Of a DNA stretch of 53,550 bases, positions 1 through 53,550 are shown piece by piece; the first letter of the stretch is position 1, and each line of letters begins with the position of its first letter. A program made the position numbers and the translations under genes. The stretch lies in IMG/VR virus record IMGVR_UViG_3300035542_000019; one strand, 5' to 3'. Under the pieces are notes generated by a model. It made no database searches, was not told the origin of the DNA, and saw only the letters and a list, made by a program, of their open reading frames with translations. The stretch is from a virus.

Positions 1-113
1 CTAGGCGAAAAAACGGCCGCGACGGTGGGTGTATCGGACGAAACGGTGGATAGTGGTACAACGGCTACCCCGGACGAGGAAAACGCGCCTACGGGCGAAT
101 CAGGCGCCAGTAA
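1..113. repeat. Terminal overlap identical to 53438-53550 (circular closure of a 53,437-bp unit)
   Basis: First 113 nt (ctaggcgaaaaaacggccgcgacggtgggtgtatcgg...ggcgccagtaa) recur base-for-base as the last 113 nt of the window. Confidence 0.95.
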
Positions 114-282
114 CGAAGCAGACGCGAAAGCGGCCAAAGCGCTGGACGATAAGTACAAGCGCGACGAACTGGCTACAGCTGCTAAGGACGCCGGCGTAGA
201 ATTCCCGTACGACGCGAAAAAAGCCGAAATCATCGAAGCAGTAATGACAGCTGGAAAAGCCGAAACACTGCTTAAAGCGTAA
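1..282 (+). CDS. 3-prime part of the wrap-around gene that starts at 53315 (134 aa when joined); hypothetical head-module protein
   Basis: Position 1 is in frame with the ATG at 53315 (53438 = position 1, 123 nt = 41 codons upstream). The frame stays open to the TAA at 280-282. The track ORF 25..282 is only its GTG-truncated tail. Confidence 0.7.
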   Translation, partial: LGEKTAATVGVSDETVDSGTTATPDEENAPTGESGASNEADAKAAKALDDKYKRDELATAAKDAGVEFPYDAKKAEIIEAVMTAGKAETLLKA

Positions 283-295
283 AGGGGGCTAACGT

Positions 296-670
296 ATGGC
301 CTTTTTAACCGAAGCAGACCTGGTAAACTTCTACCCGAAGGCCGTAAACGTCGAAGCAGGGGACAAGCGCACGTACCTACAGCGTGCTAATGCTTTTTGT
401 AAAGGCGTAATCGGGGGCGAACCGCCTACAGTGGACGACGACTTAAAGGCTGCTGTAGCGCTGGCCTTCGAAATCATGGCCCAGGGGGAAACCGCACAGA
501 TAGAAGAAATCACGGGGAACATTACGGAAGCAGCGCCGCCAGGCCAGTACGCCAGGAATTCCAGGGAAAAGGACCCGCTGGACGTAGTAAGAAACATGCT
601 ACGGCCGTACCGGTTAGCTTTCGAAGCTGCTAACGCGGCCAAGAGCGACCGGGGCGTGGCCTTCCTATGA
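296..670 (+). CDS. Head-tail connector/adaptor protein candidate
   Basis: 124-aa ORF with SD aaaggggg upstream and an ATGA overlap with the next gene. Assigned from size and position between the capsid block and the tail block. Confidence 0.4.
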   Translation: MAFLTEADLVNFYPKAVNVEAGDKRTYLQRANAFCKGVIGGEPPTVDDDLKAAVALAFEIMAQGETAQIEEITGNITEAAPPGQYARNSREKDPLDVVRNMLRPYRLAFEAANAAKSDRGVAFL

Positions 671-1167
671 GTAGACGGGAACACGTCTTTAACATAGAAA
701 ACCTGGATAAATGGCTGGAATGGCTGGAAAGCTTAGACAAGGAACACTTAGAGCGCTTCCAAAGTCGCGTATTAAGGACCGCGGGACTTCGGATACTTGA
801 ATACGCCGACGACTTGACGCCCAGGCGCAGCGGTAGACTACAGAACAGTATGACGATGGGCGACCGTGAAAACGTATTTAAACTAAAGGTAGGAAGGACG
901 GCATACGTAGCCGTGGGGTCCGCTGTAGAGTACGCCGAAGCACGGGAAAAGGGCTTCGAGCAAAGGCGGGGGCGCTTTATTCCTGGATACTGGCGTAGCG
1001 GCACTTTTCACTATGACCCCGAAGCTTACCCCGAGGGAATGGTACTTACGGGTAAGATTATCGAAGGGGCGCATATGTTTAAAAAGGCTATGGACTACCT
1101 GGAAGATGACCTGGACACTATTACAGAATTCGAGTTTAGGCGGTTATATGCCGAACTCTTTAATTAA
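667..1167 (+). CDS. HK97 gp10-like head-tail joining protein
   Basis: 166 aa. TPRRSGRLQNSM ... VGSAVEYAEAREKG resembles the HK97 gp10 family pattern. Lies in the connector region. Confidence 0.5.
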   Translation: MSRREHVFNIENLDKWLEWLESLDKEHLERFQSRVLRTAGLRILEYADDLTPRRSGRLQNSMTMGDRENVFKLKVGRTAYVAVGSAVEYAEAREKGFEQRRGRFIPGYWRSGTFHYDPEAYPEGMVLTGKIIEGAHMFKKAMDYLEDDLDTITEFEFRRLYAELFN

Positions 1168-1178
1168 GGGGGTGACGT

Positions 1179-1637
1179 ATGGACTACCTTAAGGAACTAG
1201 AAGCCATACAAACCTGGATAAAACAAACGACCGGCCTAAATTCGTACAGACTAAGAGAAGCCAAGCCCAAGCTGGCCCGCCCAGTAATACTATGGGAAAC
1301 GCCTAGCCGAAGCAGGGACCGAAACCTAAGCAGGTACCAATACGTGACGACGGTAAGGCAGTATGGGCGGTTATTCGTAACCAGCCTGGACAGCGCCTTA
1401 ACCGTACAGGAACAGCTTATTAAGGACCTGGAAGAAAAGGTAGGCGTCCTTCCGGTTATGGACGGGCAGACGCAGCTAGGCCTTTTAAAGGCTGTAACCA
1501 TCGAATTCGAGGACGGCGAAAACCTGGATATACCCTTTAGCATACGCTACGAAGCGACCTACGGCAGAACCCGCCCAGCGGAAGCGCCGAACGCGACGTA
1601 CGTAGGCAATAGGATTATCAACCACTACGACGAATAG
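1179..1637 (+). CDS. Neck/tail-terminator candidate (XkdJ position)
   Basis: 152-aa ORF with SD aagggggt, placed just upstream of the sheath block. No motif recognised. Confidence 0.35.
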   Translation: MDYLKELEAIQTWIKQTTGLNSYRLREAKPKLARPVILWETPSRSRDRNLSRYQYVTTVRQYGRLFVTSLDSALTVQEQLIKDLEEKVGVLPVMDGQTQLGLLKAVTIEFEDGENLDIPFSIRYEATYGRTRPAEAPNATYVGNRIINHYDE

Positions 1638-1647
1638 GGGGTAACAT

Positions 1648-1836
1648 ATGGCGACGAAGAAGAAGCCAGCAAAAGAAGCGCCCGTATTCGACAAGGCCGC
1701 GCTGATTAGCGCAGCTAAAGAATTCGGTACGACCCCCGAATTTATGGCGGGCGCACTGACAGGAACGAAAGAACCAATCACACGGGAACAGGCCAAGGAT
1801 AAGCTGGACGAATTCATGGCCCGACCTATCAAATAA
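1648..1836 (+). CDS. Small hypothetical protein
   Basis: 62-aa ORF with SD taggggg 6 nt upstream, Lys/Ala-rich. Confidence 0.5.
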   Translation: MATKKKPAKEAPVFDKAALISAAKEFGTTPEFMAGALTGTKEPITREQAKDKLDEFMARPIK

Positions 1837-1854
1837 CGAAGGGGGTAATACCAT

Positions 1855-3258: not shown

Positions 3259-3274
3259 GAAGGGGGTAAACTAA

Positions 3275-3694: not shown

Positions 3695-3702
3695 GTAGCA
3701 CA

Positions 3703-14176: not shown

Positions 14177-15745
14177 ATGGACCTAGAAAAACTACTGGGC
14201 TTCGTGCCTACGATTATCGTAAACGACGGCCACGGGTATAACCCGGAAACCGGCAAGGCCACAGCTGGAAAGAGGACGCCGGCTATGCCTGGGACCGGTA
14301 GGCCGATATACGAAAACCAGTTTAACAAGGCAGCGGCCGACAAATTCGAAAAACGGGCCAAGGCGGCAGGTTTTAACGTCGTCCAAGCTGCACCGGAATA
14401 CGACGACGTACCGCTTAAAGAGCGCAGCAGACGGGCGAACGCGGTATACGCAGACCTTAAGAATAAGTACCCGAAGGTGGAACCTAGAAAGTTATGTATC
14501 TACGTAGCTTTTCACTATAACGCCTACGACGGGCGCTTTAACACGAATAAGGGCGGCGTAAGCGTTCACTACCACCCTGGAAGCGTAGAGGGCGAAAGGC
14601 TAGCCGCTGCGGTACTGAACCAGCTTATCAAGGGGACCCCACAGAGAAACCGGGGGGTAATCGCGTCAAACTTCCACGAGGTACGGGAAACCTATATGCC
14701 GGCTATCTTAATCGAAGCGGGCTTTATGGACGTACTGGAAGAAGCTACCCTTATGCTTAACGACGCCTTCCAGGACGAGGTAGTAGAAGAAACCCTGGCG
14801 GGCTGCCTGGACTATTACGACCTGGAAGGGTACCAGGATACGGCCCAGGACGACCAGCAGACGACTTACACGGTTAAGGCAGGCGATACCCTGGGTAAGA
14901 TTGCAAAAGCCTACAGCACGACGGTAGACGCCCTGGTAAGGCTAAACGGTATCAAGGACCCGAATATTATTAGGGTCGGCCAGGTAATCAAGCTTACCGA
15001 GGAAAAGGAACCCGAGGTAATGGGTACGCCGCTTATGGGACCGGCCACGGCGACGACGGACCAGGCCAGGGCCTGGGTCGAAGGGGTCTTTAAAAAGAAC
15101 GGCTGGAAGAACGACGAAAAGCTGGAAAGCCTTAAGGACCTGGCGAAAGTCTACTGGGACGTATGGCCGAAAATCGGACTTAACCCGGCTATCGGCTTCG
15201 TGCAGATGGTACACGAAACAGGGTACCTATACATGATTAAAAGCGCCGCGGGTATCGACGAAAGCTATAAGAACCCCTGCGGGCTTAAGGTGACCCAGGG
15301 CGGCGGTGACTACGTGGCAAGCGCCCATAAGCGCTTTAGCAGTTGGGAAGAAGGGGTAACAGCCCACGGCGACCATGCAGCGCTTTACGCAGGCGCGCCA
15401 GGCTACCCCAAAGCGGATACCCCGGACCCTAGACACTTCCCGTATATCAAGGGTAAGGCCCCTACGGTGGAAGCCCTGGGCGGACGCTGGGCGCCGTCTA
15501 AAGAGTACGGTAACAAGCTGGTAAGGACCCTAAAGACGCTGGAAGCTGCGAAGCCTACAGCGGTGGAAGAACCGGCAGACGAAACCGCGGGCCTAAGGGC
15601 GCGCATTAAACAGCTGGAAGCTGACCTGGATAGAATGAGCGGCCGCGCGGTCGTCGCAGAACGCCAGGCCCAGGCGGAACGCGAAAAGTACCTTAAGTAC
15701 GAAAAGGTATTTAAGGATATCAAAACACTACTGGGGGGTATGTAA
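14177..15745 (+). CDS. Multidomain endolysin: amidase_3 + LysM + glucosaminidase-like domain + coiled-coil tail
   Basis: [12 protein letters not shown]...HYNAYDG...ILIEAGFMD (MurNAc-LAA type). LysM is [55 protein letters not shown] is glucosaminidase-like. The C-terminus is heptad-rich. Confidence 0.85.
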
Positions 15746-21682: not shown

Positions 21683-21698
21683 AAAGGGGGCGCGGGCC

Positions 21699-22373
21699 AT
21701 GAATAACACGTACGGAACGCTAGAAGATGGTAGGGTACAGATTTTACTAACCAGGAAGAACGGGAACCCACAGGAAGCCGTCGTAATTGACGCCGAGGAC
21801 CTGCCTAGACTGCTGGCCTTTAAAGGCCACTTCTACCCGTTTACCCACCAAAAGACGGGCAAGGTATACGCCAGGGGGTACTACAAGGACCCCGAAACCG
21901 GAAAGGTGCAGCAGCCATTACTACATAGGCTAATCGCGGACCCTTCCAAGGGACAGAACACGGCGCACGTAAACGGTAATACCCTGGACTGTACCCGCGA
22001 GAACCTGCGGAACTTGTCCATAGGTAAGAATATCGAGGACGTGTTAAGGGAAGAAAAGACCTTCACGGACGGCCTTAAAGAGGTTAAGCGCAGCGGGGAT
22101 ATCGCAGCAGAAAAGGAACTGGAAGAACTGGCGACGGTGGACCCGGATACGCTTAACGATAAGCTGGACAAGCTTAAGGACCAGGGCCGGGTAGAAAAGG
22201 GCGTAAGCTTCCACAAGCTAAAGCGGCGCTGGGAAGTAAGCGCCTTCCATAAGGGCAAGCGGCACCGGCTGGGGTACTGGCCGCCGGAAGAACTTAGAAA
22301 GGCAAACGAAGCGGTACTATTCTTTAGGCGAGAGGGTCCCAGGGCCTTTAACGCCGCTTATGAAAGGGGGTAA
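21699..22373 (+). CDS. HNH-AP2 homing-endonuclease-like protein
   Basis: LHRLIADPSKGQNTAHVNGNTLDCTRENLRNL is HNH_3-like. GVSFHKLKRRWEVSAFHKGKRHRLGYWPPEELRKANEA is an AP2 DNA-binding motif. Confidence 0.7.
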   Translation: MNNTYGTLEDGRVQILLTRKNGNPQEAVVIDAEDLPRLLAFKGHFYPFTHQKTGKVYARGYYKDPETGKVQQPLLHRLIADPSKGQNTAHVNGNTLDCTRENLRNLSIGKNIEDVLREEKTFTDGLKEVKRSGDIAAEKELEELATVDPDTLNDKLDKLKDQGRVEKGVSFHKLKRRWEVSAFHKGKRHRLGYWPPEELRKANEAVLFFRREGPRAFNAAYERG

Positions 22374-22377
22374 GTAA

Positions 22378-22650: not shown

Positions 22651-22663
22651 CGAAAGGGGTAAC

Positions 22664-23296: not shown

Positions 23297-23308
23297 GGGG
23301 GTATCGAA

Positions 23309-33505: not shown

Positions 33506-35029
33506 GTGAAACTTAGCAGCATGTTTCCAAATAGCAGGACGCTAGCCAATAAGACAGCACCGGCCCCCGTAAAGGAACGGCCGAAAGCTGAAAAGCTGGC
33601 GGACCTATTACCGAAGAACAAAAGAAAGCCAGGTACTTTTAACATTACCTGGCCCAAGTTTAGAACGCAGCAGCCAAAGGACTACAGGGTTATAACCACA
33701 GTAGACCAGCTGGAAGCGTATATAGATAAATGCGAAGCTACCGGACTGGGCGGCTTCGACTATGAAACAGCGGGCGACGAGAACCACAGGACCGAAAAGG
33801 ACATAGAGGAAAGGGTAGCGCTTGACCCGCATAAGTCAGAAATATGCGCTATGAGCCTATCGGCAGCAGCCGACGAAGCCCGGGCCATATTCATAAGCCA
33901 CAAAACGGGCGGTAACCAATTCGAGCCGGGGCTAGAGAGAAACGAAGCCAGGAAAGTTTTAATGGACACGCTGGAAAGACGCTTCTTTACTAACCCTAAG
34001 ATTATGAAAATCGCCGTTAACCTGGCCTTCGAAACGAAATTTACAGCCAAGTACGGTAAGTATATCCTTATGCCGGTGGCTGACCCGTTCACGGCCTGGA
34101 TACGTATTTTACAGCTGGTGGCGCCCCAAAAGATTAAAAGCCCGAAGCGGCCGTACACTGGAAAGGGCCTTAAGCCCATGACGTACGAATACTTCGGGGT
34201 ACGTATGGGTAACTTCGAAGAAGTGCTTAAGAAGTACGACGCGGACTTTTTCGACGAGATACCATCGGACAGCCAGGACGCCCTGGTATACTGCTGCGAG
34301 GACAGCGACTACGCCGTACAGCACTGGTTATACTGGGACGAGATAGCCCAGCAGATAGAGAACGAGAACGACGAGTACCCGACGTACAGCGACTGGCTTA
34401 AGGGTATAGAAATGCCCTTCGCCCGCGTTATCGGCCTTATGGAATACCACGGCATGTACTGGGACCAGCACCTAAGCGAGGTTAAGCGCCAGGAAGCCGA
34501 GATTATGCAGCAACAGGCCGCCGAGGATATCCAGCGTATCGCAAAGGAAACCCTGGGCCTTGACGTGAACCCGGGTAAGTCGGGAAAGACCAACGAGGTA
34601 AAAAGCGTCATATTCGACAGCATGAAAATACCGGCGTCGTCCTGGTCCGATAAGACCGGCGACCCGAGCCTGGACGCTAACGCGCTTATGGATATGATTT
34701 TTATGTTAGAGAACAAACTAAACAGCCTGGACGAAGAAAAGTACCTAGCGACGCCGCTACCCGAGGGCTGGGAAGATATCGACGTAGAAAACGACACCAC
34801 GCTAGACCGCTACACGCGCCAGCGTATACGTATAGCGCAGCGGCCGCCGCACAAGTACCGCGACCAGGGTATCGAACTGCTTAACCTGCTGCAAAAGATA
34901 CAAAAGTACAGCACGCTTTTAAGTAGCCATATCGTAGGCCGTGAGAAGTACCTACACGAGGTTACGAACCGGATACACGCCCAGTATACGCCGTGGACGG
35001 AAACCAGCAGGCTAAACAGCAGCCGCCCT
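33506..35029 (+). CDS. Family A DNA polymerase, exon 1 (3-5 exonuclease domain and N-terminal part of the polymerase domain)
   Basis: GTG start with SD gaaagggg. GGFDYETAGD and CCEDSDYAV are exo motifs. The conserved motif is broken after ...TSRLNSSRP. The track ORF reads on into the intron to 35077. Confidence 0.85.
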
Positions 35030-35743
35030 AAAAAGTTGGGGCCTACAGGGGCGACCCTGTACGGAAAAACCGCGTGAACCCAGGGGAAGCTAAGGGCCTA
35101 TGGCCTACGCCAATCCTGGACCAAGCCAGCAGAACGCTATAAAAGTAAGCTGGAAGGCGCAACGACTAACGGCCGAGGAAGCGAACCGATAAGGCCGACA
35201 CGAGCGCGCGGGTACTATAAAAACCTGTAATAACAAAACGTGCCGTTTTATGATATACTAACCCTAAGAAAGGGGAGATACCATGAAATGGAATGAAGAA
35301 AAAGAGCGGTTCCTAAAAGAGAACTACCTAGAGAAAGGCGCTAAATATTGCGCGGAGAAGCTGGGGGCTACAAATGCGGCCATACGACACAAAGCAAGCA
35401 GGCTAGGCCTTAAGCGGAAAGGTAAAGGCAGACCGGATAGAGTTGTAGAAGTTGGCGGCTATAAAGCCATATCACGTTATAACGACAGAAAGCGGATACA
35501 CAGGTTAGTAATGGAGAAACACCTGGGGCGCGAACTGGAAGCTAACGAGATAGTACACCATAAGAACGGCAACAAACACGATAACCGGCTGGAAAACCTA
35601 GAGGTAGTAACCAGGGGTGAACATATGCGCAAGCACCCAAAGGAACGCGACGAAAAGGGTAGGTTTATATAGTACATGATATAGTCTAACCTTACGGGAA
35701 ACCGTAAGAACTACAGGATAAAGAGCCTGTAGGTTAATACATG
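35030..35743 (+). mobile_element. Group I self-splicing intron carrying an HNH endonuclease ORF
   Basis: Exon 1 ends in U (gccct) that can pair as G-U with ggggc at 35038-35042 (P1). The intron ends in G (...aatacatg). Has GAAA-tetraloop and other hairpins. Splicing restores SSRP-NGQNVPR. Confidence 0.75.
35283..35672 (+). CDS. Intron-encoded HNH homing endonuclease
   Basis: Own SD aaagggga. [47 protein letters not shown] is an HNH motif. The N-terminal segment is HTH-like. Confidence 0.8.
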
Positions 35744-36661
35744 AACGGCCAAAACGTCCCACGTACCGATAACGACGAATTCGGTATACGGAACTTCTAC
35801 AGGGCGCCCGACGGGAAGGTGCTTTACCTTATCGACTATAGCGGCTTCGAACTTCGGCTAATGGCCTGGAAGTCCGGCGACGAGGTAATGACAGACGCCT
35901 TTAAGCACGGGGGCGACCTGCACAGGAAAACAGCGGCGACGCTTACGGGTAAGCCGGAAAGCGAAATCACGAAGCACGAAAGAAGTAATGCAAAATCTGG
36001 AAACTTTGGTATTTCTTATGGCGGCACGGAATACGCCCTACAGGGAACCCTTAAGGGCTACGGTATTCGTATGAGCCTGGACGAGTGCCTGGAAATCGTA
36101 AAGGCGGTAAAAGCGACCTATCCAAGGATACCCGAGTACCAGCGCAGTATCGTAGTAGAAGCCAGGGAACAGGGCTACGTAGAAACCATCTACGGCTATA
36201 AAAGACTGCTGCCTAACATCAATTCGACAAGCGGCAAGGCTAGAAGCAGCGACGAGCGTAGGGCGTCAAATACGCCTATACAGGGGTCGGCAGCAGACGT
36301 TATGAAACGTAGCCAGCTGGTCGTATACGAGAAAATAGGCCTTGATACAGCCAGGGAAAGGCTGGGACAAGACCTTAAGGTATTCGAAGGCTTTAGCGAA
36401 GAAATCAAAACAAAGCTGGAAGAACCGCCGGTATTCATGCACGGTAAAACCGATATGCTGGCTAATATTCACGACGAAATTATATTCGAATTCGTAGACG
36501 ACGTGGAAGTAATCAAGCGTGCCGGCGCATGGGTAAAAGAGGTTATGGAAATACCACCGGTACCAGGCTTCCCTATTGATATCGAAGCTGACGCCAGCGT
36601 AGCCTACAGCTGGGGTAATAAAAAGGACCTGGACGAATGGCTTAAAGAAAGGAAGGGGTAA
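35744..36661 (+). CDS. Family A DNA polymerase, exon 2 (palm/fingers motifs A, B, C)
   Basis: NGQNVPR; DYSGFELRLMAW (motif A); RSNAKSGNFGISYGG (motif B); NIHDEIIFE (motif C). The ATG at 35741 in the track is the last three intron bases. Confidence 0.85.
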   Translation, partial: NGQNVPRTDNDEFGIRNFYRAPDGKVLYLIDYSGFELRLMAWKSGDEVMTDAFKHGGDLHRKTAATLTGKPESEITKHERSNAKSGNFGISYGGTEYALQGTLKGYGIRMSLDECLEIVKAVKATYPRIPEYQRSIVVEAREQGYVETIYGYKRLLPNINSTSGKARSSDERRASNTPIQGSAADVMKRSQLVVYEKIGLDTARERLGQDLKVFEGFSEEIKTKLEEPPVFMHGKTDMLANIHDEIIFEFVDDVEVIKRAGAWVKEVMEIPPVPGFPIDIEADASVAYSWGNKKDLDEWLKERKG

Positions 36662-36664: not shown

Positions 36665-37021
36665 ATGAAATTTAACGAATACCAGGACCTGGCGGCTAGG
36701 ACCGATAACCGGGACCTGGATACTGAAAAACTTATCAAAATGGCGCACCTTATTAACGCGGCCATGGGCCTATCGGGGGAAGCCGGGGAATTCGAGGACC
36801 GGGTAAAAAAGGTAGTATTTCAAGGCCACGACTTCGAGAAGGAAGCGGCCAAGCTTAGCGAGGAACTGGGCGATATTCTATGGTATGCAGCCAAGGCAGC
36901 CCGCGAACTTGATAAGCTGCTGGGCGACGTGGCTAAGGCAAACATCGGTAAGCTTATCGCCAGGTACCCCCAGGGTTTCGAAAAGGATAGAAGCGTAGAA
37001 AGGGGCGGGTACGATGGCTAA
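36665..37021 (+). CDS. mazG: MazG-like nucleoside triphosphate pyrophosphohydrolase
   Basis: 118 aa. LSGEAGEFEDRV ... ELGDILWYAA matches the MazG EExxE/D signature. Confidence 0.7.
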   Translation: MKFNEYQDLAARTDNRDLDTEKLIKMAHLINAAMGLSGEAGEFEDRVKKVVFQGHDFEKEAAKLSEELGDILWYAAKAARELDKLLGDVAKANIGKLIARYPQGFEKDRSVERGGYDG

Positions 37022-44098: not shown

Positions 44099-44878
44099 AT
44101 GAAAAACGAAGATAATCTATACTACGGCTGCAATAGGATAGAGATACCGGAAGGATACGACCCTTACGATATGGACCTTAAAAAGCAGCTAAACGAAAAA
44201 GCGGACGAAATGAACCGTATACACTTTATCAGAAAAAAGCCGGTACTATCCTGCGGGGCGAAAAAGCGGGGTACAGATGGCTTTTGCCAGCAGTACGCAG
44301 GACAGGGTACGGACCATATAGGGTACGGACGCTGTAAGAACCACGGCGGCAGCAGCACGGGACCGAGAAGCGCGGAAGGTAAGGCGGCTTCGTCCCAAAA
44401 CTCACGGGTACACGGCCTGTATTCTAAAGTTATGCTGCCGAAGGAACGGGCCATATACGAAGAACTGCTGGAAGCTGGCGGCGAAGCCCTGGGCCTTAAG
44501 CACGAAATTCTAATGATGAAGGCTAAGATTATCCTATACCTAGGTAAGTGGGCCGACCGGTGGAAGGATATAGCGGAAAAAGAAGGCGACGGACCGGCCG
44601 ACGATAAAACCAAGGTATGGTTTAACGAAGGCGAAACGGGTAAGGCGAGGAACTACTACCATGCCGGTACCATCGAGGACCGAACGCTGGACAGGGCGCT
44701 TAACACGCTGCGAAGGCTGGTAGACGCTTATAGCAAAATGAACCCGGAACAGGGCGACGACCTGCTTAAGTCCATTAACCAGGAACTAAGGGCAGCGTCC
44801 TACGGCCAGGTAAGCGTAAGCTGGGGCGGCAGCGCACAGGCGAAAGGGGGCGTAGATAATGACGACGCCGACGAGTAA
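44099..44878 (+). CDS. terS: Terminase small subunit candidate
   Basis: 259 aa, upstream of TerL. CKNHGGSSTGPRSAEGKAASSQNSRVHGLYS resembles the G.N..HG.YS repeats I associate with some small terminases. Confidence 0.55.
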   Translation: MKNEDNLYYGCNRIEIPEGYDPYDMDLKKQLNEKADEMNRIHFIRKKPVLSCGAKKRGTDGFCQQYAGQGTDHIGYGRCKNHGGSSTGPRSAEGKAASSQNSRVHGLYSKVMLPKERAIYEELLEAGGEALGLKHEILMMKAKIILYLGKWADRWKDIAEKEGDGPADDKTKVWFNEGETGKARNYYHAGTIEDRTLDRALNTLRRLVDAYSKMNPEQGDDLLKSINQELRAASYGQVSVSWGGSAQAKGGVDNDDADE

Positions 44879-44996
44879 CCAGGGCAAGCTACAGCAGGCC
44901 AAGGCGATTTTAAAGGCCCGGGGAATGAAGCCCCAGGACTACAACCACCTGGGCTATAGGGAAATCTTGAAACTGGCGGGGGTAAAGAATGAGTAA
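44859..44996 (+). CDS. Small protein (45 aa, MTTPTSNQGKLQQAKAILKARGMKPQDYNHLGYREILKLAGVKNE)
   Basis: SD gaaaggggg 8 nt upstream. Overlaps terS and the next ORF. Not in the track (<60 aa). Confidence 0.45.
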   Translation: MTTPTSNQGKLQQAKAILKARGMKPQDYNHLGYREILKLAGVKNE

Positions 44997-45171
44997 GGAC
45001 CCATGCAAAGGCTGTATATGTAGTACCTGCGAGTTAAGCGAGAAGCAGGGACACCTATACGGCTGTAAAAAAAGACGCTGCCAAGCGTGCAGCGAAAACA
45101 GGTACCTGCGACTTACCTACTGCCCCGACAGCCTGCCAATAGAGGAAAAGGGGGAAGTAATAAGGCTATGA
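44989..45171 (+). CDS. Cys-rich mini-protein (60 aa, 9 Cys) between terS and terL
   Basis: CKGCICSTC ... C ... CQAC ... C. ATGAGTAA overlap upstream and ATGA overlap with terL. Confidence 0.55.
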   Translation: MSKDPCKGCICSTCELSEKQGHLYGCKKRRCQACSENRYLRLTYCPDSLPIEEKGEVIRL

Positions 45172-46856
45172 TAGAGGGAAACCTAGCTTACAAGTCTACG
45201 GAATTCGAATATAAGGCGGATATCGACCCTATAAGCGGCGCGCCTACGCTGGTAGCCGTACCGAAAACCGTAAAGGCTGCTAAAGCTGGCGTCCCTTATA
45301 ACGCGATAGCCGATATTACCGACCTATTCAAACGTGAGAACATACGCGAAGCCTGGCGACTGATACGGAAGAACGACCCGTACGACTACCAGGTAGAAAT
45401 CGCGGACGCCATCATATACAGCGCACTAAACGGCCTGGGCTGGTACTTCGTAGTCATGGTAACGCGCCAGGCCGGTAAAAACGAAATAAGCGCCTTCGTG
45501 CAGCAGTACCTTTTACTTTACGGCCACTTTTTCGGGCAGCCGGTAAGCGGGGTCAAATTCGCACCGGTACATAAGCCGCAGGTACAGGCTTCCATGGACC
45601 GATTAGAGGGCGCGGCCACGGCAGACAGTGGCGGCCTGGCGGGAAGCGTGCTTACGAAAACCCGCTGGTCGAAATCAGACGGCTACAAGTACCATATAGG
45701 ACCGGCCCGGGACGGTAATAAATGGGCCTTCCTAAGTATCAACCCGTCCGCTAACGTGGCTTCGCAGACAGCCTTTACACTGCTGGAAGGTGACGAAGCC
45801 CAGGACATAGACGCGAATAAGTGGGAACGGGACGCGCAGCCCATGGGGTCCTTTAACAATGCTACGACGGTCTTATGGGGCGTAGCCTGGACAAAGGAAA
45901 GCTTTATCTACCAGGGTATGCAGCAGGCCCTGGATATGGAACAGCGCTTAGAAGCACAGCTGGGGTACCGCCCTAAGCTGGTCTTTAAGATTGACGCCCA
46001 CCGGGTTATCGCGTCGGGTAACGAGAACTACCAAAAGGCTTTCGAGAACCAGGTAGCAAGACTGGGTAAGGACCATATCGCAATACAGACCCAGTACCTG
46101 CTTAATTTTATAGACAGTATCGGTAAATTCTTTAGCCATGAACAGCTGGCGCGGATATTCGCAGGCACCCAAAAGCCGAGAGTAGGCCCGGAACCCGGGA
46201 AAATCTACATATGGGCGCTTGACGCTGCCGGCCAGGAAGAAGAACTAACCACGGTAGACGAATTCGCGGTAGGCGAGCATAAACGCGACGCCGTGGACCT
46301 GGTGATAGGGGAACTAAAGAAGGACGGTACGATTATACCGGTATGCTTTTACCAGTGGGTCGGACAGGCCCATAGCAAGCTTAGGGAACTGATACCTAAG
46401 ATACTAAAGCACTGGGGAACCATCGGCGGCAGCGGTGACGCTACGGGAATCGGGGAACCCCTGGTATACTACCTTAAGGAAATACTGACTAACCAGGAAG
46501 TAGAAGCCTACAAGTTTAAGGCCCACGGCGACGAGAACAAAAGCAAGCTGGGGTACCTGGCCTACGAGTACGTGAAAAGCGACCTTTTCAAAATGCCACG
46601 TAGACCGGTGGACGACCCCGAGCAGGCCGAGTTATGGGACGAAGCCCGCTGGCAGCTGGAAAACTTGATACGAGAAGCGAAAAAGGAACAAAAGATAAAC
46701 TGGTACGTACCCGGGAACGCGAAACCACGCAAGCCGGGCCACGTAGCCCATGACGATATGGCGACAGCTTTATTTTTACTTATGCGGGCCGCGTTTATGA
46801 TTAAGAACCCTGGCGCGCGTAAGGCGGCGGCTTTTGACCGCAGCGAAGTAATCTAA
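45168..46856 (+). CDS. terL: Terminase large subunit
   Basis: 562 aa from the ATG coupled (ctATGAtag) to the upstream stop. VTRQAGKNEIS is Walker A-like and LLEGDEAQD is Walker B. Followed by the portal gene. Confidence 0.8.
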   Translation: MIEGNLAYKSTEFEYKADIDPISGAPTLVAVPKTVKAAKAGVPYNAIADITDLFKRENIREAWRLIRKNDPYDYQVEIADAIIYSALNGLGWYFVVMVTRQAGKNEISAFVQQYLLLYGHFFGQPVSGVKFAPVHKPQVQASMDRLEGAATADSGGLAGSVLTKTRWSKSDGYKYHIGPARDGNKWAFLSINPSANVASQTAFTLLEGDEAQDIDANKWERDAQPMGSFNNATTVLWGVAWTKESFIYQGMQQALDMEQRLEAQLGYRPKLVFKIDAHRVIASGNENYQKAFENQVARLGKDHIAIQTQYLLNFIDSIGKFFSHEQLARIFAGTQKPRVGPEPGKIYIWALDAAGQEEELTTVDEFAVGEHKRDAVDLVIGELKKDGTIIPVCFYQWVGQAHSKLRELIPKILKHWGTIGGSGDATGIGEPLVYYLKEILTNQEVEAYKFKAHGDENKSKLGYLAYEYVKSDLFKMPRRPVDDPEQAELWDEARWQLENLIREAKKEQKINWYVPGNAKPRKPGHVAHDDMATALFLLMRAAFMIKNPGARKAAAFDRSEVI

Positions 46857-46874
46857 AACAAAGGGGGTAATCGA

Positions 46875-48458
46875 ATGGCTGTAACAAGTACACCACCGGC
46901 GGCGTTATCGAGCCTGCCGCGCGTGAGCCTGGAAGCGGCGCAAGACTGGGCGCAAGCTAACGGCAGATGGATAAAGCTTATGCTGGACCAGCACGCCGCA
47001 TGGATAGAAGAAGCCGAAGTAGAGAAATACCAGGCCGCGTACGACGGGTACCTGGAAAGCGTAGACACCAGGGACAAGGCCCGGGGCGACGATACGAATT
47101 ATAAGATATTCGTAAACCTGGCCCAGCTGATTATCGACGTGGCGGTGGACTACATCATAGCGAAGCCGCCCGTATGGACCGTATACGATTCAGACCTGGA
47201 AAAGGGGAAGAAGGAACCGGAGATACTGGAAGAATTCCGTAAGAAGCTGCTAAAGAAGCTAAGGACGGAACAAGCCCAGCGCGTACTTGCCGAGCAGCTG
47301 CGCCAGGGCAGTATCGCCTTTTACAGCCCGGTTATATGCTGGGTAGACGAAAAGGGTAATATCGACTTCGAGGAATTCCCGGTACAGGAAGTAATACCGG
47401 TCTACGATACAAGGGGCCGCCTGGTAATGGTCCTACGTAGGTATGAAATGGAAGTAGCCACCGACGCGGGTACCGAAAAGTATACGCGGGTAGATGTTTA
47501 CGACGATAGGTATATCACGTACTACCGCAGCAACGAAACAGGCGACGGCTACGTACTGGACGATACGGAAATCGAAACAGGTAACCCTATCGAGCATAAG
47601 GCCGGCCGTATCCCGGTAAGCGTGTTCACGAATGGAACCGCAGCCAGGTACAGCAGGCGGGTAAAGCGTGCTGGTACGTCGGACCTGGAAAGCGTCTTTA
47701 GCATTATCGACGCCTACGCCAATGCAGTAAGCGACAAGGCGAACCTGGTAGACTACCTACAGGACCAGTACCTTAAGCTTAAGGGCGTGGATACCGACGA
47801 AAAAGAAGTAATCAAAATGCGAAAGGCTAGGGCCATCGCGCTTAAGTCGAAGGACAGCGACGCGGAATTTATCGCCCAGGACCAAAGCGACACGGCGGTA
47901 GAGAACTACCTAAAGCGCCTGGAAGATTTAAGCTACGATACGACCTTTACGCCGAAGCTGAACGACCTACAGGGGGCAACGGCTACCGAAATCAAAATGA
48001 AGTACGCGAACCTGGATATCAAGGCCGGGAAGAAGGAAACGTACTTCACGACGGCGATTAACGACTTTATCGCTATCGTAACGGACCTAATGAACGCCGA
48101 GAAGCTGGTAGCGGCTGGCGTGGAAAGTCCTTACGAGATTCTAAGCGACCCCGAAGCCATGGAAAAGCGCGACGACCTATATAATGCAGAGTGGGTACAG
48201 TTTACCCTTAAACGAAATATGCCGCAGAACTACAAGGAAATAGCGGATATCGTAAGCCTGCTTATCGACAAGGTACCGGACGCTTACCTGTACGAACTCT
48301 TATGGTTTATCGACGACCCGGTGGCTGCCCTGGAAGAAATGAAGGCGCAGCGAGAGGAAAGGGCAAAGCTGGAAGCACAGACGAGCCTAACCGCGCTGGG
48401 GTACGGCGGAGAATTCGCGAACCTTGAAGGGGAAAATAACGAGGAAGGCGAAGAATAA
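46875..48458 (+). CDS. Portal protein
   Basis: 527 aa, directly after terL and before the MuF/gp7-like gene. Acidic C-terminus. Confidence 0.75.
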   Translation: MAVTSTPPAALSSLPRVSLEAAQDWAQANGRWIKLMLDQHAAWIEEAEVEKYQAAYDGYLESVDTRDKARGDDTNYKIFVNLAQLIIDVAVDYIIAKPPVWTVYDSDLEKGKKEPEILEEFRKKLLKKLRTEQAQRVLAEQLRQGSIAFYSPVICWVDEKGNIDFEEFPVQEVIPVYDTRGRLVMVLRRYEMEVATDAGTEKYTRVDVYDDRYITYYRSNETGDGYVLDDTEIETGNPIEHKAGRIPVSVFTNGTAARYSRRVKRAGTSDLESVFSIIDAYANAVSDKANLVDYLQDQYLKLKGVDTDEKEVIKMRKARAIALKSKDSDAEFIAQDQSDTAVENYLKRLEDLSYDTTFTPKLNDLQGATATEIKMKYANLDIKAGKKETYFTTAINDFIAIVTDLMNAEKLVAAGVESPYEILSDPEAMEKRDDLYNAEWVQFTLKRNMPQNYKEIADIVSLLIDKVPDAYLYELLWFIDDPVAALEEMKAQREERAKLEAQTSLTALGYGGEFANLEGENNEEGEE

Positions 48459-48471
48459 GGGGGCGTAGGCT

Positions 48472-50595
48472 ATGGCTGGAATAAGCAAACGCGTATTAGC
48501 CCGAAGGCAGAAAGACCTAGAAGGCTTTACGGAATACTACCAGGGGCGGCTTGATAAACTGGCCGCCGAAAAAGCGAAATCACTAGCCCCGGCCTGGCAG
48601 CGCATGACGAAGCAGATAGAAAAGCAGGTAGCGGACCTTTATTTTAAAGTGGGCGCCATGGACGACCCCACAAAGATAACGGCCCTTAACTATAAAGGCG
48701 CCAGGCTTGAAGCCCTGGCTAAGCAGCTGGAAAAGGACCTACAGCTGGGGGGAATCATCAAAAGCGAAACCGAGAAAATGGTACCGGTATTTACGGACGC
48801 CATAAGCGCGGGCTTCGAAGATGGCTACTACTTCCAGGCCTGGGGGCTTGAACAGGCGGCGAAAGTCGGGGTAAACGTCCCGCTTTTAAGTAAGGCGAAC
48901 GTATTAGGCGTTATCGTTAACCCGTGGCTACCGGACGGCGCGAACTACAGCAGCCGAATAAGGGCTAACGCGGACTTTATCGCGAAGAAAGCGCGCGAGA
49001 AGGTGGCTGAAGCCGTTAAAAATGGCTGGTCGGTGAACGAAGCAGCCCGGGCCATGCGTGACGTGACCGGGGAAGGCTACTTCCGAAACGTCGCCCTTAT
49101 GCGGACCGAGTTAAACAGGGCCGCGGCACTGGGTAGCAGCTATTTAGGCATGGAAAACGCCGATATATGCGACGCCAAGCGGTGGAACGCGACCCTAGAC
49201 ATAAGAACGGCCCCTAAAGACAGGGATAACGACGGTAAACAGTACGACCTGGACTACGATACACCGGGTAATCCTGGCGTAGCCGGGCAGCGGATACCGA
49301 ATCATACGAATTGTCGCTGCAAGTGGACCCTGGTACTAAGCGCCCTGGGCGTAAGCACCAAGGAAAGGATAGCGAGAAGCGGCGATACGAAGGACAGCTG
49401 GGGCGAGAACGTCTACACGAAGGCCAGGACCTACGACGAGTACGCCGAGAAGCGCGGTCTACCGCCGGCTAAGGAACTGCTGGAAAGGGACAACTTCAAA
49501 AGCTACCTACGACCCGGCGAAACCATGGAAGCCTTTAACCGAAAGGTAACACGGTGGCAGACAGCCGGCGGCGCGGTCACTACAGCCCGCCCAGCATGGG
49601 ACAAGGTGAACAAGACCGAGTTAAAGGCAGCTGCCGAAGGTAAGACAGGCGACGAGTGGGACGAAATCATAAAGGCCAAGGTAGCCCAGGGGGTCGAGAA
49701 TGAAGCGGACGTACGCGAGGTAGGCGCTATACTGCGTAAGCAGGTAGAAGCCGAGGACAAGGCCCTAAAGGCCGCCAGGGACAAGCTGGACCTGGAACGC
49801 GACGAACTGGAAGAACTTATGGCCGAAGCGCAGCTTAAGGCTATGGGCGGTACAGATAAAGCAGCGGTTAAGCGTTACGAGGAACTAAAGGAACAGCTTA
49901 CCGAGAAAATAAAAGCGGTAGACGAGATTAACGACAAGCTGGCGACAAAACGCGGCGAAAGACTTAAGGAAATGCTGGCGAAGGTTCGACAAGTAGGCCC
50001 TGCAGGCACAGAACAGCCGTATATAAAGCGCAGCAGCGTACCCTACAAGAAGGAAATAGACAACGTACGCGAGTACCTGCCTACAGACTGGGTTAAGGCT
50101 TCCAATACCCGGCCGATGAAGGTAAAGAAAGGGCAGCGTGGTTACTACCAGGAAGCAAAATTTAAAGACGAGGAAGCGCTAAGCAGGGCGGGTTACTCAC
50201 TTAGACAGCTGGAACGTGCCAAGCGAATGGACCTTTACGAGGATACCATAGCGCTAAGCGGCAGGGGCAGCAGTCTAAAGCGTACAGCCTTCCACGAAAT
50301 GGGCCACCGAATGGAAGATATGATACCGAATATCAGACGCCTAGAGCATGAATTTTACCAAAGGCGGACAGCCGGCGACGAATTAAAATGGCTGGGGGGC
50401 GGCTATTCGAGAAGTGAAACGGCCCGCTTCGATAAATTCCTGCGTAAGTACATGGGTAAGGACTACGGTAACAAGCCGGACAGCTACTACGAACTTTTAA
50501 GCATGGGGCTAGAAGGCATTTATACAGGCAGCGTTAACGTACTGGACGATACAGACTATGCGGACTTTATCTACGGCCTGCTGGCATCGCAGTAA
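48472..50595 (+). CDS. MuF/SPP1 gp7-like head morphogenesis protein with long C-terminal extension carrying HExxH
   Basis: RIPNHTNCRCKW is the gp7/MuF-family motif. A coiled-coil linker follows. TAFHEMGHRME (HEMGH at 50293-50307) lies in the last ~200 aa. Confidence 0.7.
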   Translation: MAGISKRVLARRQKDLEGFTEYYQGRLDKLAAEKAKSLAPAWQRMTKQIEKQVADLYFKVGAMDDPTKITALNYKGARLEALAKQLEKDLQLGGIIKSETEKMVPVFTDAISAGFEDGYYFQAWGLEQAAKVGVNVPLLSKANVLGVIVNPWLPDGANYSSRIRANADFIAKKAREKVAEAVKNGWSVNEAARAMRDVTGEGYFRNVALMRTELNRAAALGSSYLGMENADICDAKRWNATLDIRTAPKDRDNDGKQYDLDYDTPGNPGVAGQRIPNHTNCRCKWTLVLSALGVSTKERIARSGDTKDSWGENVYTKARTYDEYAEKRGLPPAKELLERDNFKSYLRPGETMEAFNRKVTRWQTAGGAVTTARPAWDKVNKTELKAAAEGKTGDEWDEIIKAKVAQGVENEADVREVGAILRKQVEAEDKALKAARDKLDLERDELEELMAEAQLKAMGGTDKAAVKRYEELKEQLTEKIKAVDEINDKLATKRGERLKEMLAKVRQVGPAGTEQPYIKRSSVPYKKEIDNVREYLPTDWVKASNTRPMKVKKGQRGYYQEAKFKDEEALSRAGYSLRQLERAKRMDLYEDTIALSGRGSSLKRTAFHEMGHRMEDMIPNIRRLEHEFYQRRTAGDELKWLGGGYSRSETARFDKFLRKYMGKDYGNKPDSYYELLSMGLEGIYTGSVNVLDDTDYADFIYGLLASQ

Positions 50596-50608
50596 AGGGG
50601 GTATCGAA

Positions 50609-50890
50609 ATGTTTACGGTAAAAGGCAGGATACGCGGAAAGCCCTACAGCATTACATGGGACGATGGCAAGCTTACCGGTGACGGGCTGGCCGTAGATAT
50701 GACAAAGATACAGGCAGCGGCAAAAGAAGGCCGGCCAGTGGGACCCGTGGGACAGTACACGGAAACCGACCACCTAAAGGACCCGGTTAGCGCCCTGTAT
50801 CTTATCACGAGCGACGTTTTTACGTCGGTAATCGCCATAACGGGGGAAATACCGGAAGCAGACGGCGCCCCCGAAGGCGCGGTAATCTAG
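50609..50890 (+). CDS. Hypothetical protein (93 aa)
   Basis: ATG with SD taaaggggg. The track start at 50558 has no SD and overlaps the upstream gene. Confidence 0.55.
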   Translation: MFTVKGRIRGKPYSITWDDGKLTGDGLAVDMTKIQAAAKEGRPVGPVGQYTETDHLKDPVSALYLITSDVFTSVIAITGEIPEADGAPEGAVI

Positions 50891-50992
50891 GCCCGACCTG
50901 GCAAGGCGTTAAACTGACAGGGGGATATAGCGACCAGCGGCTTACAGCTGGCAAATAAGGCGACGGCCGTAAAACGGAAAGGAAGGTAGACT

Positions 50993-51769
50993 ATGAAAAG
51001 AATCAGAACGCTACAGGAACAGTTAAAAACGGGGAAAATCACGAAGGACCAGTACGAAGCCGAACTTAAAAAGTTACTGGACGATGAATTTATAGACCAG
51101 GACGAACACGACGAAGCGGCAGCCTTCGACCCCGAAGCCGAAAAGCCTATTTTCACACAGGCAGACGTAGACCGTATCGTAGTGGTAAAAGCTACGAAAC
51201 TGGTAAGAAAAGCCCTTAAGGACGCCGGCGTAGACGTGGACGCTTCGAATAAAGACCTACTGGAAACGGTAGCCGACTTAGCGAAGAAGGGCCAGGGCGC
51301 AGGCGACGGCGGTACAGATGGCGCAGCTACAGACCAAGACCTGGCGAAGCTTAAGCAGCTAGAAGGTAAATTACCGAAGCTGGAAAGCCGCGTACAGGAC
51401 CTGGCAGTAGAGAACGCCGTACTTAAGGGACTGGGTGGGAAGCTTAAGGCTGTAAACCCTGTTCAAGTAGTGCGCGCTTTAAAGCTGGACTATATGGACC
51501 TGGTAGAAATCGACGACGAGAGCGGCGAAGCTACCACGAAAAGCGTAGAAACAGCGTTAAAGCGTATCGCGCAGGCAGAGCCTAACCTATTCGAAGCCAC
51601 AGAGGGGGGAGAAGAAGGCGCAGGCGACGACGAAAGCGGTACGGGCTTCAAGGGGAAAGGCCCGGGCGGCGGCACAGCTGGCGGCAGCACTAAGGACCTG
51701 GAAAAGAAAAGGGCCGAAGCTAAGGCCATGCTGGCGAAAACAGGTATCACGTTTCCCGAAACCAAATAA
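50993..51769 (+). CDS. Scaffolding protein
   Basis: 258 aa, charged coiled coil with FTQADVDRIVVVKATKLVRKAL. Lies upstream of the decoration and capsid genes. Confidence 0.65.
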   Translation: MKRIRTLQEQLKTGKITKDQYEAELKKLLDDEFIDQDEHDEAAAFDPEAEKPIFTQADVDRIVVVKATKLVRKALKDAGVDVDASNKDLLETVADLAKKGQGAGDGGTDGAATDQDLAKLKQLEGKLPKLESRVQDLAVENAVLKGLGGKLKAVNPVQVVRALKLDYMDLVEIDDESGEATTKSVETALKRIAQAEPNLFEATEGGEEGAGDDESGTGFKGKGPGGGTAGGSTKDLEKKRAEAKAMLAKTGITFPETK

Positions 51770-51794
51770 CTAAACGAAAGGTAGGTAATTAAAA

Positions 51795-52187
51795 ATGGCT
51801 GATATCACTATCAGAACCCACAGCGCTAGCGCTGCTAAGGAAATCAAGGCAAGCGCGCATTACGCGTACGTAGTAAACGGCATTACCCTGGACGGTAGCA
51901 AATTCGCGACCGGCGAACTTGTCACAGAAGGCCAATGCCTGGTAATGGACGACACTAGCGGCAAGTACGAGAAGTACACGGAATCGACGCCCGGCACTTT
52001 TGAGCCTGGGAAGTCTAACCCCGTGATTCTTGACGAAAGCGTGAAATTCACGGTAGACGACGAGGGAAATAACCCCGACGTAACCGTAGGCCAGGTAATC
52101 GTACACGGTGCGGTACATGCTGGTATGCTTACCGGCGTTACCGACGAATTCAAGAAGGCGCTGGCCGGTAGCGTGCGCTTCGTGTAA
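51795..52187 (+). CDS. Head decoration protein candidate (lambda gpD-like position)
   Basis: 130 aa between the scaffold and major capsid genes. Confidence 0.5.
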   Translation: MADITIRTHSASAAKEIKASAHYAYVVNGITLDGSKFATGELVTEGQCLVMDDTSGKYEKYTESTPGTFEPGKSNPVILDESVKFTVDDEGNNPDVTVGQVIVHGAVHAGMLTGVTDEFKKALAGSVRFV

Positions 52188-52228
52188 GCGACAACTAACT
52201 AAACCAACAACGAAAGGGGTAAATAAAC

Positions 52229-53239
52229 ATGGCTGGACTTGCAAACTTAAGCGATTTTTTCTCTAACCCGCTATTTACCGAAGCGATTCGGGAAGTACCG
52301 GTAGAAGCTAAGTACATCGGGCAAAGATTTTTGCCTATCGAAGAAACTTACGACATTGACTTTAACGAAACAGTGCTTACGCGCCAGGCAGATATGGCGA
52401 ACCTGGTAGACAGCGGCGCCGAACTGCCTTTAACTGACCGCGACCCTGTACGTAGGGTGTCCGGTGAAATTACCGATATCGGTCAAAGCTACATTCTTAC
52501 GAAAAAAGAACTTGCAGCTATGAGCGATAAGGGTAACGAAGGCAAGCGAAAGCTGGCCGTACAGATGGTACTAGGCAAGACCGCACAGGTTAAGCGTAAT
52601 ATCGACGCCCGTATCGAGTGGCTGCGCTGGCAGGCACTGGGTAACGGCGTGCTGGCTTACAACAAGGGCGGTATTATCCTGGGCCAGGACTTCGGCGTAC
52701 CTGCCGAGAACAAGGTAACAGCTGGGACTAAGTGGGACGATACCACGCCTACGATTATCCCGGACTATGAAAGCTGGGTACAGGCGTACATCGACCTTAA
52801 CGGCGAAGTGCCGGACGTATTCGTAACGTCTATTAAGGCGATTCGTGCCGTAATGAACGACGCGAACGTTAGAAAGGCTATTACAGGCCTTAGCGACAAG
52901 CTGGTAACGCTTGACGAACTTAACGACTTCCTGGTAGGCCGTCAAATGCCACGTATGGAAGCCTTCGACGCGACGGTTACTTACCGCGACGTGGAAAGCG
53001 GCGGAAGCCGAGTTACCCAAAGACTGCTTAGCGAGAAAAAGGGCGTTTTCCTTAAGGAAGGCGGCGTAATCGGTAAGCAGCTTCTAGGACCTACGTACGA
53101 AAACGATATGAACCCTGGTATTTACGCGCATACGTTCACTATGCAGCGACCTACTAGGGAAGTCGTGGAAGTCGTAGCGGCTTCGTTCCCGAAAATCCTA
53201 GACCCTAACCTTATCAAAATCGCCAACCTGCTAGTATAG
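52229..53239 (+). CDS. Major capsid protein (lambda gpE-like type)
   Basis: 336 aa with SD gaaagggg. Follows the scaffold and decoration genes and is followed by a stable hairpin. Confidence 0.75.
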   Translation: MAGLANLSDFFSNPLFTEAIREVPVEAKYIGQRFLPIEETYDIDFNETVLTRQADMANLVDSGAELPLTDRDPVRRVSGEITDIGQSYILTKKELAAMSDKGNEGKRKLAVQMVLGKTAQVKRNIDARIEWLRWQALGNGVLAYNKGGIILGQDFGVPAENKVTAGTKWDDTTPTIIPDYESWVQAYIDLNGEVPDVFVTSIKAIRAVMNDANVRKAITGLSDKLVTLDELNDFLVGRQMPRMEAFDATVTYRDVESGGSRVTQRLLSEKKGVFLKEGGVIGKQLLGPTYENDMNPGIYAHTFTMQRPTREVVEVVAASFPKILDPNLIKIANLLV

Positions 53240-53256
53240 GGGTATGGCAGCTAATT

Positions 53257-53284
53257 AAGGGGCGTACTATAGGCTACGCCCCTT
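53257..53284 (+). terminator. Stem-loop after the capsid gene (partial terminator or mRNA stabiliser)
   Basis: aaggggcgta / tacgcccctt 10-bp perfect stem with an 8-nt loop. The downstream T-tract is poor. Confidence 0.4.
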
Positions 53285-53314
53285 TATCAATTCAAAACGA
53301 AAGGGGCGTATAGT

Positions 53315-53550
53315 ATGCCAAAAGTAAAACTGCTTAAGCCGGTGACGTTTAACGGCGCCATCGTAGAAGCTGGGGAAGAAATCGAAGTAGCCGAAAGAAG
53401 CGCCGCGAGCCTGGTAGCCGACAAGGTAGCCGAGTATCTAGGCGAAAAAACGGCCGCGACGGTGGGTGTATCGGACGAAACGGTGGATAGTGGTACAACG
53501 GCTACCCCGGACGAGGAAAACGCGCCTACGGGCGAATCAGGCGCCAGTAA
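53315..53550 (+). CDS. 5-prime part of the wrap-around gene continuing at 1-282
   Basis: ATG with SD gaaagggg 8 nt upstream. The frame is open to the window end. 53438-53550 duplicates 1-113. Confidence 0.7.
   Translation, partial: MPKVKLLKPVTFNGAIVEAGEEIEVAERSAASLVADKVAEYLGEKTAATVGVSDETVDSGTTATPDEENAPTGESGAS
53438..53550. repeat. Terminal overlap identical to 1-113
   Basis: Exact 113-nt identity with the window start. Confidence 0.95.

Follow-up and report, generated by a model that had tools for sequence, protein, structure and literature searches.

Background

Complete loss of GATC is known from phages of Gram-positive bacteria: Staphylococcus phage K and the Twort-like phages have lost every copy, which is interpreted as a passive escape from the Type II enzyme Sau3A (PMC6532042, PMC5618024). 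Here we analyse the same absence in IMG/VR virus record IMGVR_UViG_3300035542_000019, a stretch of viral DNA of 53,550 nucleotides (the window, meaning the whole stretch), in which GATC occurs on neither strand. Site-specific counter-selection against GATC is demonstrated by null models that preserve codons, by lineage-specific recurrence of the loss, and by selection visible in a twin genome. We consider it likely that restriction drove the elimination, with a host enzyme as the agent that we infer. The elimination of GATC as such is an already-known kind of event, as phage K shows; what stands out is the scale of the purge to which it belongs.

Like phage K, the window probably represents a virulent phage of a Gram-positive host that has wholly lost GATC with no part played by a phage methylase. 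Unlike phage K, a myovirus of ~140 kb to which it is unrelated, it measures ~53 kb and has an SPP1-type portal and tail-sheath-like and XkdM-like genes. Its GATC loss is also just part of a far wider purge, in which asymmetric and bipartite words have gone too, and the enzyme, named for phage K, is here a putative one. The same 4-mer is wholly absent from phiX174 (PMC5014478); unlike the window, that is a single-stranded DNA (ssDNA) phage whose host possesses Dam and MutH, and evasion of mismatch repair is the explanation given there. In the survey of Rusinov et al. 2018 (BMC Genomics, PMC6286503), near-complete site elimination was found in roughly a tenth of viral genomes, was stronger in non-temperate phages, and concerned mostly orthodox Type II palindromes; avoidance of Type I or Type IIG sites was not found, and that of Type III sites was rare. 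Unlike the genomes of that survey, the window is at zero for asymmetric Type IIS-like words and for 22 gap-specific bipartite motifs (N4-N8).

The nearest cultured relative by protein is Bacillus phage vB_BboS-125 (Elmenteitavirus, host Bacillus bogoriensis; NC_048735, our loci L061 and L062). The two share the same gene order (replication-packaging-head-tail) on one strand, and their portal and primase-MCM proteins are 55% and 73% identical, respectively. By gene order and core proteins the window belongs with the Elmenteitavirus-like phage group. A nucleotide-level match is absent, so by the usual nucleotide-identity criterion the two are not of the same genus. They further differ in PstI sites (1 in the window versus 79) and HindIII sites (49 in the window versus 0), and vB_BboS-125 alone encodes a dCTP deaminase and a ThyX-like gene. 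The words 'restriction', 'GATC' and 'methyl' are absent from the vB_BboS-125 genome paper, and the purge appears undescribed for this phage family in the literature searched by genus name, which yielded a single review.

Results and discussion

Absence of GATC and null models

A pattern search over both strands of the 53,550 bases counted 0 GATC, and a separate script concurs. The preliminary description of the window had reported this absence, together with its trace at codon level (GAT never before C, ATC never after G), the abundance of the other 4-bp palindromes, and the precedent of phage K, and each of these was borne out, the precedent being correctly cited. Its figure of about 200 expected copies, based on near-even composition, was too high: the bases are A 30%, G 29%, C 23% and T 18%, and although the base-composition expectation is 192, a range of 70-140 is fairer. 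Dinucleotide-preserving shuffles (n=100) give 69.5 +/- 7.5 copies, and a second-order Markov model gives 74.8 (from 427 GAT, 422 ATC and 2410 AT). Shuffling synonymous codons within each gene gives 135.6 +/- 9.4 (500 trials, minimum 105), and shuffling codon order gives 142. The Poisson probability of zero copies ranges from 7e-31 to 1e-59. The other fifteen 4-bp palindromes stand at 0.77-1.39 of their Markov expectation, and among all 136 strand-symmetric 4-mers GATC is the sole one below 5% of its codon-shuffle expectation. All four flank classes NGATC/GATCN (AGATC, CGATC, GGATC, TGATC and their complements) are zero where 59-73 would be expected, which argues that the target is GATC as such rather than some longer site. 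The 4-mers one step away from GATC number 1,758 in the window.

The removal of GATC was achieved through synonymous choices in all three codon phases, and amino-acid changes were not needed. Codon shuffles place GATC 88 times as xxG-ATC, 43 times as GAT-Cxx and 5 times as xGA-TCx; in the real genome each of these counts is 0. After a G-ending codon, isoleucine is written ATT (73) or ATA (94) and never ATC, a codon that makes up 40% of all Ile codons. Before a C-starting codon, aspartate is GAC in 244 cases and GAT in none, and a GA-ending codon is followed by a TC-starting one in 0 of the 122 Arg/Gly-Ser dipeptides. Codon usage is skewed elsewhere as well: GTA makes up 62% of Val codons and AGC 64% of Ser codons, CTC and TTG only 0.5% and 2% of Leu codons, and in 174 of 199 cases the base after Asp GAT is A. 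This skew probably arose as a by-product of the word purge.

The reverse direction, in which base composition, codon usage or mutation bias would have produced the absence incidentally, could appeal to the same codon preferences, to the near absence of CTC, and to the TC dinucleotide, which stands at 0.5 of expectation in the window. Composition and codon bias are ruled out as the cause by the nulls above, which keep dinucleotides, trinucleotides, codon usage or protein and still expect 70-142 copies. An artefact of assembly or library, or synthetic design, is ruled out in turn by the same absence in independent metagenome contigs and in vB_BboS-125, which was sequenced by PacBio. We give this whole group of explanations next to no probability.

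Selection in a twin genome

The record IMGVR_UViG_3300035548_000031 (loci L076 and L001), from another metagenome, is ~98% identical to the window; 734-789 substitutions separate the two across about 34 kb. New GATC sites in either genome number 0, versus 8.2-9.0 expected neutrally (P = 1.3e-4 to 2.8e-4). The absence of GATC is kept by purifying selection, and the window is a case in which ongoing selection can be measured. The other purged words described below reappear 36 times in this comparison versus 94 expected, about 38% of the neutral rate, and some do so at a near-neutral rate (CTCAG 4 versus 4.2, GTCTC 4 versus 5.2). Since these words reappear in the twin while GATC does not, GATC is the most strictly policed word in the window lineage. 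Most of the divergence from the twin falls in a few segments that have been replaced (window ~39.1-43.1 kb and 49.7-50.2 kb).

Distribution among related phages

A megablast of 25 kb against 50,697 phage records gave zero matches, and relatives were reached via proteins. Contigs of ~55 kb with a portal homologue make up a large family; they come from metagenomes as well as from genomes of Brevibacillus, Lysinibacillus, Paenibacillus, Clostridia and Lachnospiraceae. GATC was counted in about 40 related loci of 12-58 kb, referred to here by L numbers. The complete genome of vB_BboS-125 (58.5 kb) has 0 GATC and is also wholly without CCGG, GGAG/CTCC and HindIII sites. In a neighbour-joining tree of the portal, GATC-free genomes fall in at least six clades (the window and its twin; L037; L033/34 with L014/19/20; L010; vB_BboS-125; L029), interleaved with normal and GATC-rich sisters. 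Across 37-38 lineages, GATC was eliminated in 12, CCGG and CTAG in 5 each, CATG in 3, and GGCC and CGCG in 2 each. These six are lost in lineage-specific combinations, and the remaining ten 4-bp palindromes are never eliminated. Relatives integrated in chromosomes (large Paenibacillus and Brevibacillus contigs) are hardly purged, which matches the stronger elimination in non-temperate phages reported by the survey (PMC6286503). Host restriction would be expected to leave just such a loss: all-or-none, specific to palindrome and lineage, and weaker in prophages.

In several relatives (L008, L015, L025, L030, L031, L032, L064) GATC is instead 2-5x over-represented and evenly spread along the DNA; L008 has 93 copies against 18 expected, and L031 has 141 against 63. 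GGATC/GATCC is still avoided in the GATC-rich L008, L015 and L025. A primase-based scan for more relative sequence gave six loci, none of them from a GATC-rich lineage. One relative with normal GATC content carries a C5 cytosine DNA methyltransferase (L075:13076-14185, + strand, PF00145, E = 1.6e-58).

The same distribution bears on evasion of Dam/MutH mismatch repair, or of nicking by MutH, as proposed for phiX174 and other enterobacterial phages. In its favour stands phiX174 itself, in which putting back 20 sites lowered the mutation rate eightfold (PMC5014478). In the present family, the host indicators are all of Bacillota (the endolysin, and relatives in Bacillus, Paenibacillus, Brevibacillus, Lysinibacillus and Clostridia). 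Dam/MutH-directed repair is not known outside some Gammaproteobacteria, and we would not expect it in Bacillota. Its evasion would also leave unexplained the dozens of co-purged words and the fact that sister lineages have lost CCGG, CTAG and CATG. We regard this explanation as highly improbable for the window.

Purge of other words

GATC had been presented as a single-site signature. The emptying of GATC is as described, but at least 38 contiguous and about 22 bipartite words have been purged, and GATC is just one of them. Counts of purged words were judged against codon shuffles on both strands. Words with zero copies include GAGGC (82 expected), GGAGC (66), CTCAG (53), GTCTC (49), GAAGAC (43), CTCTTC (37), GKGCMC (35), GAGTC (20) and TGGCCA (17). 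Near zero are CTGAAG (1 observed, 55 expected), GGATG (1/56), GCATC (1/58), CCTGA (2/114), CCAGA (3/80) and GGAGG (2/72). The minimal purged words, those without a purged sub-word, number at least 38, with 0-3 copies versus 12-114 expected, and GATC is the sole 4-mer among them. The leftover copies of the other purged words are all synonymously removable, none being forced by protein sequence, and they are probably young mutations.

A panel of about 190 restriction specificities falls in two groups, about 40 at 0-1 copies and the remainder at or above expectation. The Type IIB site sequences follow PMC3883493. Sites of EcoRI, KpnI and HindIII number 35, 46 and 49 in the window. GAGGC, GGAGC, CCTGA and CCAGA were matched to no enzyme. 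The words GTCTC, GAAGAC, CTCTTC, CTGAAG, GGATG, GCATC, GAGTC and CTCAG are sites of Type IIS. Of 31 lineages, 23 have purged CTCAG, 17 GGATC, 16 GAGTC and 15 GAGGC. The window and vB_BboS-125 have 16 of 18 window 5-mers purged in common, where 1.2 would be expected by chance, as well as 8 bipartite zeros.

These asymmetric 5-6-mers are what could speak for a non-classical immunity that reads motifs, for example a phosphorothioate (Dnd/Ssp) or BREX-like system, with GATC among its targets. Words of this kind are typical of Type IIS, IIG and III enzymes and of BREX-like systems, and a motif by itself does not reveal its reader. A 4-bp palindrome is typical of orthodox Type II, however, and the CCGG, GGCC, CATG, CTAG and CGCG lost in relatives are classical Type II words too, and we judge it quite unlikely that such a system removed GATC; for some of the asymmetric words it is a more plausible reader.

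A de novo scan of motifs of the form 3+N+3 found 22 at zero copies where at least 14 were expected, and codon-shuffled genomes average 0.05 such motifs. The zeros are confined to spacers N4-N8, 19 of the 22 lying at N5-N7 and none at N1-N3 or N9-N12. They depend on the exact gap: CAG-Nx-TCG counts 103, 0, 2 and 46 for x = 4 to 7. Two of the zero motifs match the sites of BcgI (CGAN6TGC) and Bsp24I (GACN6TGG) exactly, as these are given in the Type IIB list of PMC3883493; within that list, BcgI, Bsp24I and HaeIV sites are purged, and those of BaeI, FalI and PsrI are not. The spacers of the BcgI and Bsp24I motifs rule out local composition effects. The geometry of the bipartite zeros is that of Type I/IIB sites, and a restriction role is a candidate reading of it rather than an established one.

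Nearly every gene is preceded by AAGGGGGT as its ribosome-binding site and not by AAGGAGGT (e.g. 283-295, 1168-1178, 1838-1854); the window has 54 cases of GGGGG..ATG versus 0 of GGAGG..ATG. GGAGG does serve in relatives that tolerate it (L026 15 against 7 GGGGG; L068 7 against 2). Because these relatives keep the canonical form, the ribosome-binding site of the window appears to have been rewritten so as to avoid GGAG-containing words.

The coding strand has almost no CTC in any of the three codon phases (22 copies versus 504 GAG), and CTCG has 0 copies versus 293 CGAG. Base skew accounts for only about 2.7-fold of the asymmetry between CTC and GAG, and the depletion is present in nearly all relatives (L003-L073). 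As it affects one strand only, an enzyme that reads double-stranded DNA (dsDNA) is ruled out as its cause unless site orientation matters. Candidate causes of the CTC loss are orientation-dependent restriction and a target at the level of mRNA or ssDNA.

Restriction as the probable agent

The preliminary description had read the absence of GATC as escape from a GATC-cutting host system. Site-specific counter-selection is the part of that claim which the counts confirm, and the restriction agent itself is the part that we infer. GATC-reading Type II specificities occur in Bacillota, such as Sau3A (PMC6532042) and DpnII (PMC3812788). Under host restriction, the Gram-positive hosts would carry enzymes of MboI/DpnII/Sau3AI type, possibly together with DpnI-type enzymes in mixed populations. 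Incoming phage DNA would be without the methylation mark of the host, and each GATC would be an independent cleavage target. Each site lost would raise the chance of a successful infection, so that sites would be removed one by one through synonymous changes. A genome at zero sites would be invisible to enzymes of unmethylated and of methylated sites alike, with no need of a phage methylase or inhibitor, and any new GATC arising by mutation would be cleared by purifying selection, which would hold the count at zero.

The agent might instead be solely a methyl-dependent GATC enzyme (DpnI-type, Type IIM), with phage DNA methylated in one host and cut in the next. DpnI and DpnII are complementary against methylated and unmethylated phage in pneumococci (PMC3812788), and in 46 of 46 phages whose hosts encode Type IIM enzymes of GATC specificity the compositional bias is <1 (PMC6286503). 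Absence of sites protects against methyl-dependent DpnI too, where self-methylation would fail, so that losing the sites defeats both kinds of enzyme. This explanation needs regular passage through hosts that methylate GATC, in which an enzyme of unmethylated sites usually co-occurs, and a Dam-like methylase was not found in the window. Nothing in the sequence would tell an agent of MboI/DpnII/Sau3AI type from one of DpnI type; we think it improbable that a DpnI-type enzyme acted alone.

Another explanation is a phage-made nuclease that cuts GATC in host DNA and spares the phage through absence of the site. The window has two HNH genes to which no specificity is assigned (Table 1), and these are the candidates. 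Each of them interrupts a split gene (SbcC-like and PolA, respectively), as homing endonucleases typically do, and PADLOC labels the second as such. No restriction enzyme and no DpnII-, MboI-, Sau3AI- or MutH-type domain was found in the window proteins scanned with Pfam, PHROGs and PADLOC, and GATC-rich relatives have the same gene order. We consider a phage nuclease very unlikely.

Returning to host restriction, the claim that the DNA is not blanket-modified has indirect support. The window genes scanned (Pfam, PHROGs and a motif screen, the open reading frames (ORFs) under 100 aa and some structural genes being covered for methylases by the motif screen alone) yielded neither a methyltransferase nor a base-modification gene. 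Likewise, no known anti-restriction protein was found among the window proteins scanned. In published gels, vB_BboS-125 DNA was cut by EcoRI, DraI and PstI and not by BamHI (PMC6483233). This agrees with its sequence, which has 42, 27, 79 and 0 sites for these enzymes, respectively. The modification genes that were not found and the cutting of the relative where sites exist together argue indirectly against blanket modification.

Several points weigh against host restriction. No GATC-specific restriction gene is tied to the window phage, the endolysin giving only weak Paenibacillus-like matches, and the digestion evidence comes from the relative vB_BboS-125 and not from DNA of the window phage. 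Relatives that retain or are rich in GATC would be predicted to protect themselves with a GATC methylase, but motif screens of all loci, with about 20-45 kb available per relative, gave this no support: the sole methylase found is the C5 enzyme of L075, which has no assigned specificity and belongs to a lineage with normal GATC content. The purged vocabulary is shared across relatives from different hosts, which is unexpected for strain-specific enzymes. The strand-specific depletion of CTC shows that forces beyond dsDNA restriction shape the genome. The non-coding DNA (3.1 kb) has a Markov expectation of merely 1.1 GATC and provides no independent power.

Tentatively, and with slightly more doubt than confidence, we suggest a 'stealth genome' strategy across this Bacillota phage family. 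In it Type II palindromes, Type IIS-like 5-6-mers and about 20 bipartite motifs would have been deleted, codon usage bent and the ribosome-binding site changed from GGAGG to GGGGG, with a core list of words kept at ~55% protein identity. If the words are restriction targets, this would contradict the survey view that phages do not avoid Type I/IIG sites, and one could read off from the purged list which restriction specificities circulate among the hosts. The trait switches between close lineages, so that the family offers a natural comparison in which purged words can be linked to the restriction enzymes of hosts. As vB_BboS-125 (DSM 29706) is cultured with its host, add-back work is feasible. 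Phages so poor in restriction targets are also of practical interest as a broad-host-range chassis.

Genome and gene map

The window is a circular contig of a Bacillota phage that is probably virulent. Once the 113-bp end overlap is removed, the unique genome measures 53,437 bp, and a single ORF runs across the junction in the same frame. There are about 75 genes, on the + strand only. Scans of the window (Pfam, PHROGs, PADLOC, a motif screen and a tRNA search) found no integrase, no repressor or lysogeny genes and no tRNA. The domain make-up of the endolysin indicates a Gram-positive (Bacillota) host; its named homologues are mostly from Paenibacillus, with weak matches at 35-50% identity. 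The features are collected in Table 1.

Table 1 Features of the window, with positions counted from its first base
Feature	Position	Strand	Remarks
Whole window, IMGVR_UViG_3300035542_000019	1..53550		GATC-free on both strands; all genes on + strand; 94% coding; GC 51.8%
Endolysin (Amidase_3, LysM and glucosaminidase domains)	14177..15745	+	Pfam
SbcCD-like recombination nuclease module	20246..25252	+	Domain searches
SbcC-like N-terminal part	20246-21682	+	
HNH endonuclease within SbcC-like region	21699-22373	+	
SMC_N C-terminal part of SbcC-like ATPase	23309-24040	+	
SbcD-like phosphoesterase	24284-25252	+	
Holliday-junction resolvase	26147-26680	+	
ResIII/DEAD helicase	26662-28350	+	
Primase-MCM fusion replicase, 1,048 aa	30344..33490	+	Homologue of vB_BboS-125 gp45 (73% identity)
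Family A DNA polymerase, split by HNH gene	33506..36661	+	
Exonuclease part of polymerase	33506-35077	+	
HNH_3 gene, free-standing	35283-35672	+	PADLOC label: homing endonuclease
Polymerase part of family A DNA polymerase	35741-36661	+	
MazG nucleotide pyrophosphohydrolase	36665..37021	+	Not a base-modification enzyme
Partial dNMP-kinase-like ORF	37953-38444		
Packaging and head module	44099..53239	+	Domain searches; synteny with vB_BboS-125 gp64-71
Small-terminase-like gene	44099-44878	+	
Large terminase, probable	45087-46856	+	Assigned from synteny only
SPP1-type portal	46875-48458	+	
MuF-like gene	48472-50595	+	
Major capsid protein	52229-53239	+	
Exact 113-bp copy of positions 1-113	53438..53550	+	Overlap of circularly closed assembly

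The only nucleotide-metabolism genes found in the window are MazG and the partial dNMP-kinase-like ORF. The SbcC-like ATPase is apparently split (20246-24040), with the HNH gene and three small ORFs between its two parts. The gene of the family A DNA polymerase, also interrupted in the window, is unbroken in vB_BboS-125.

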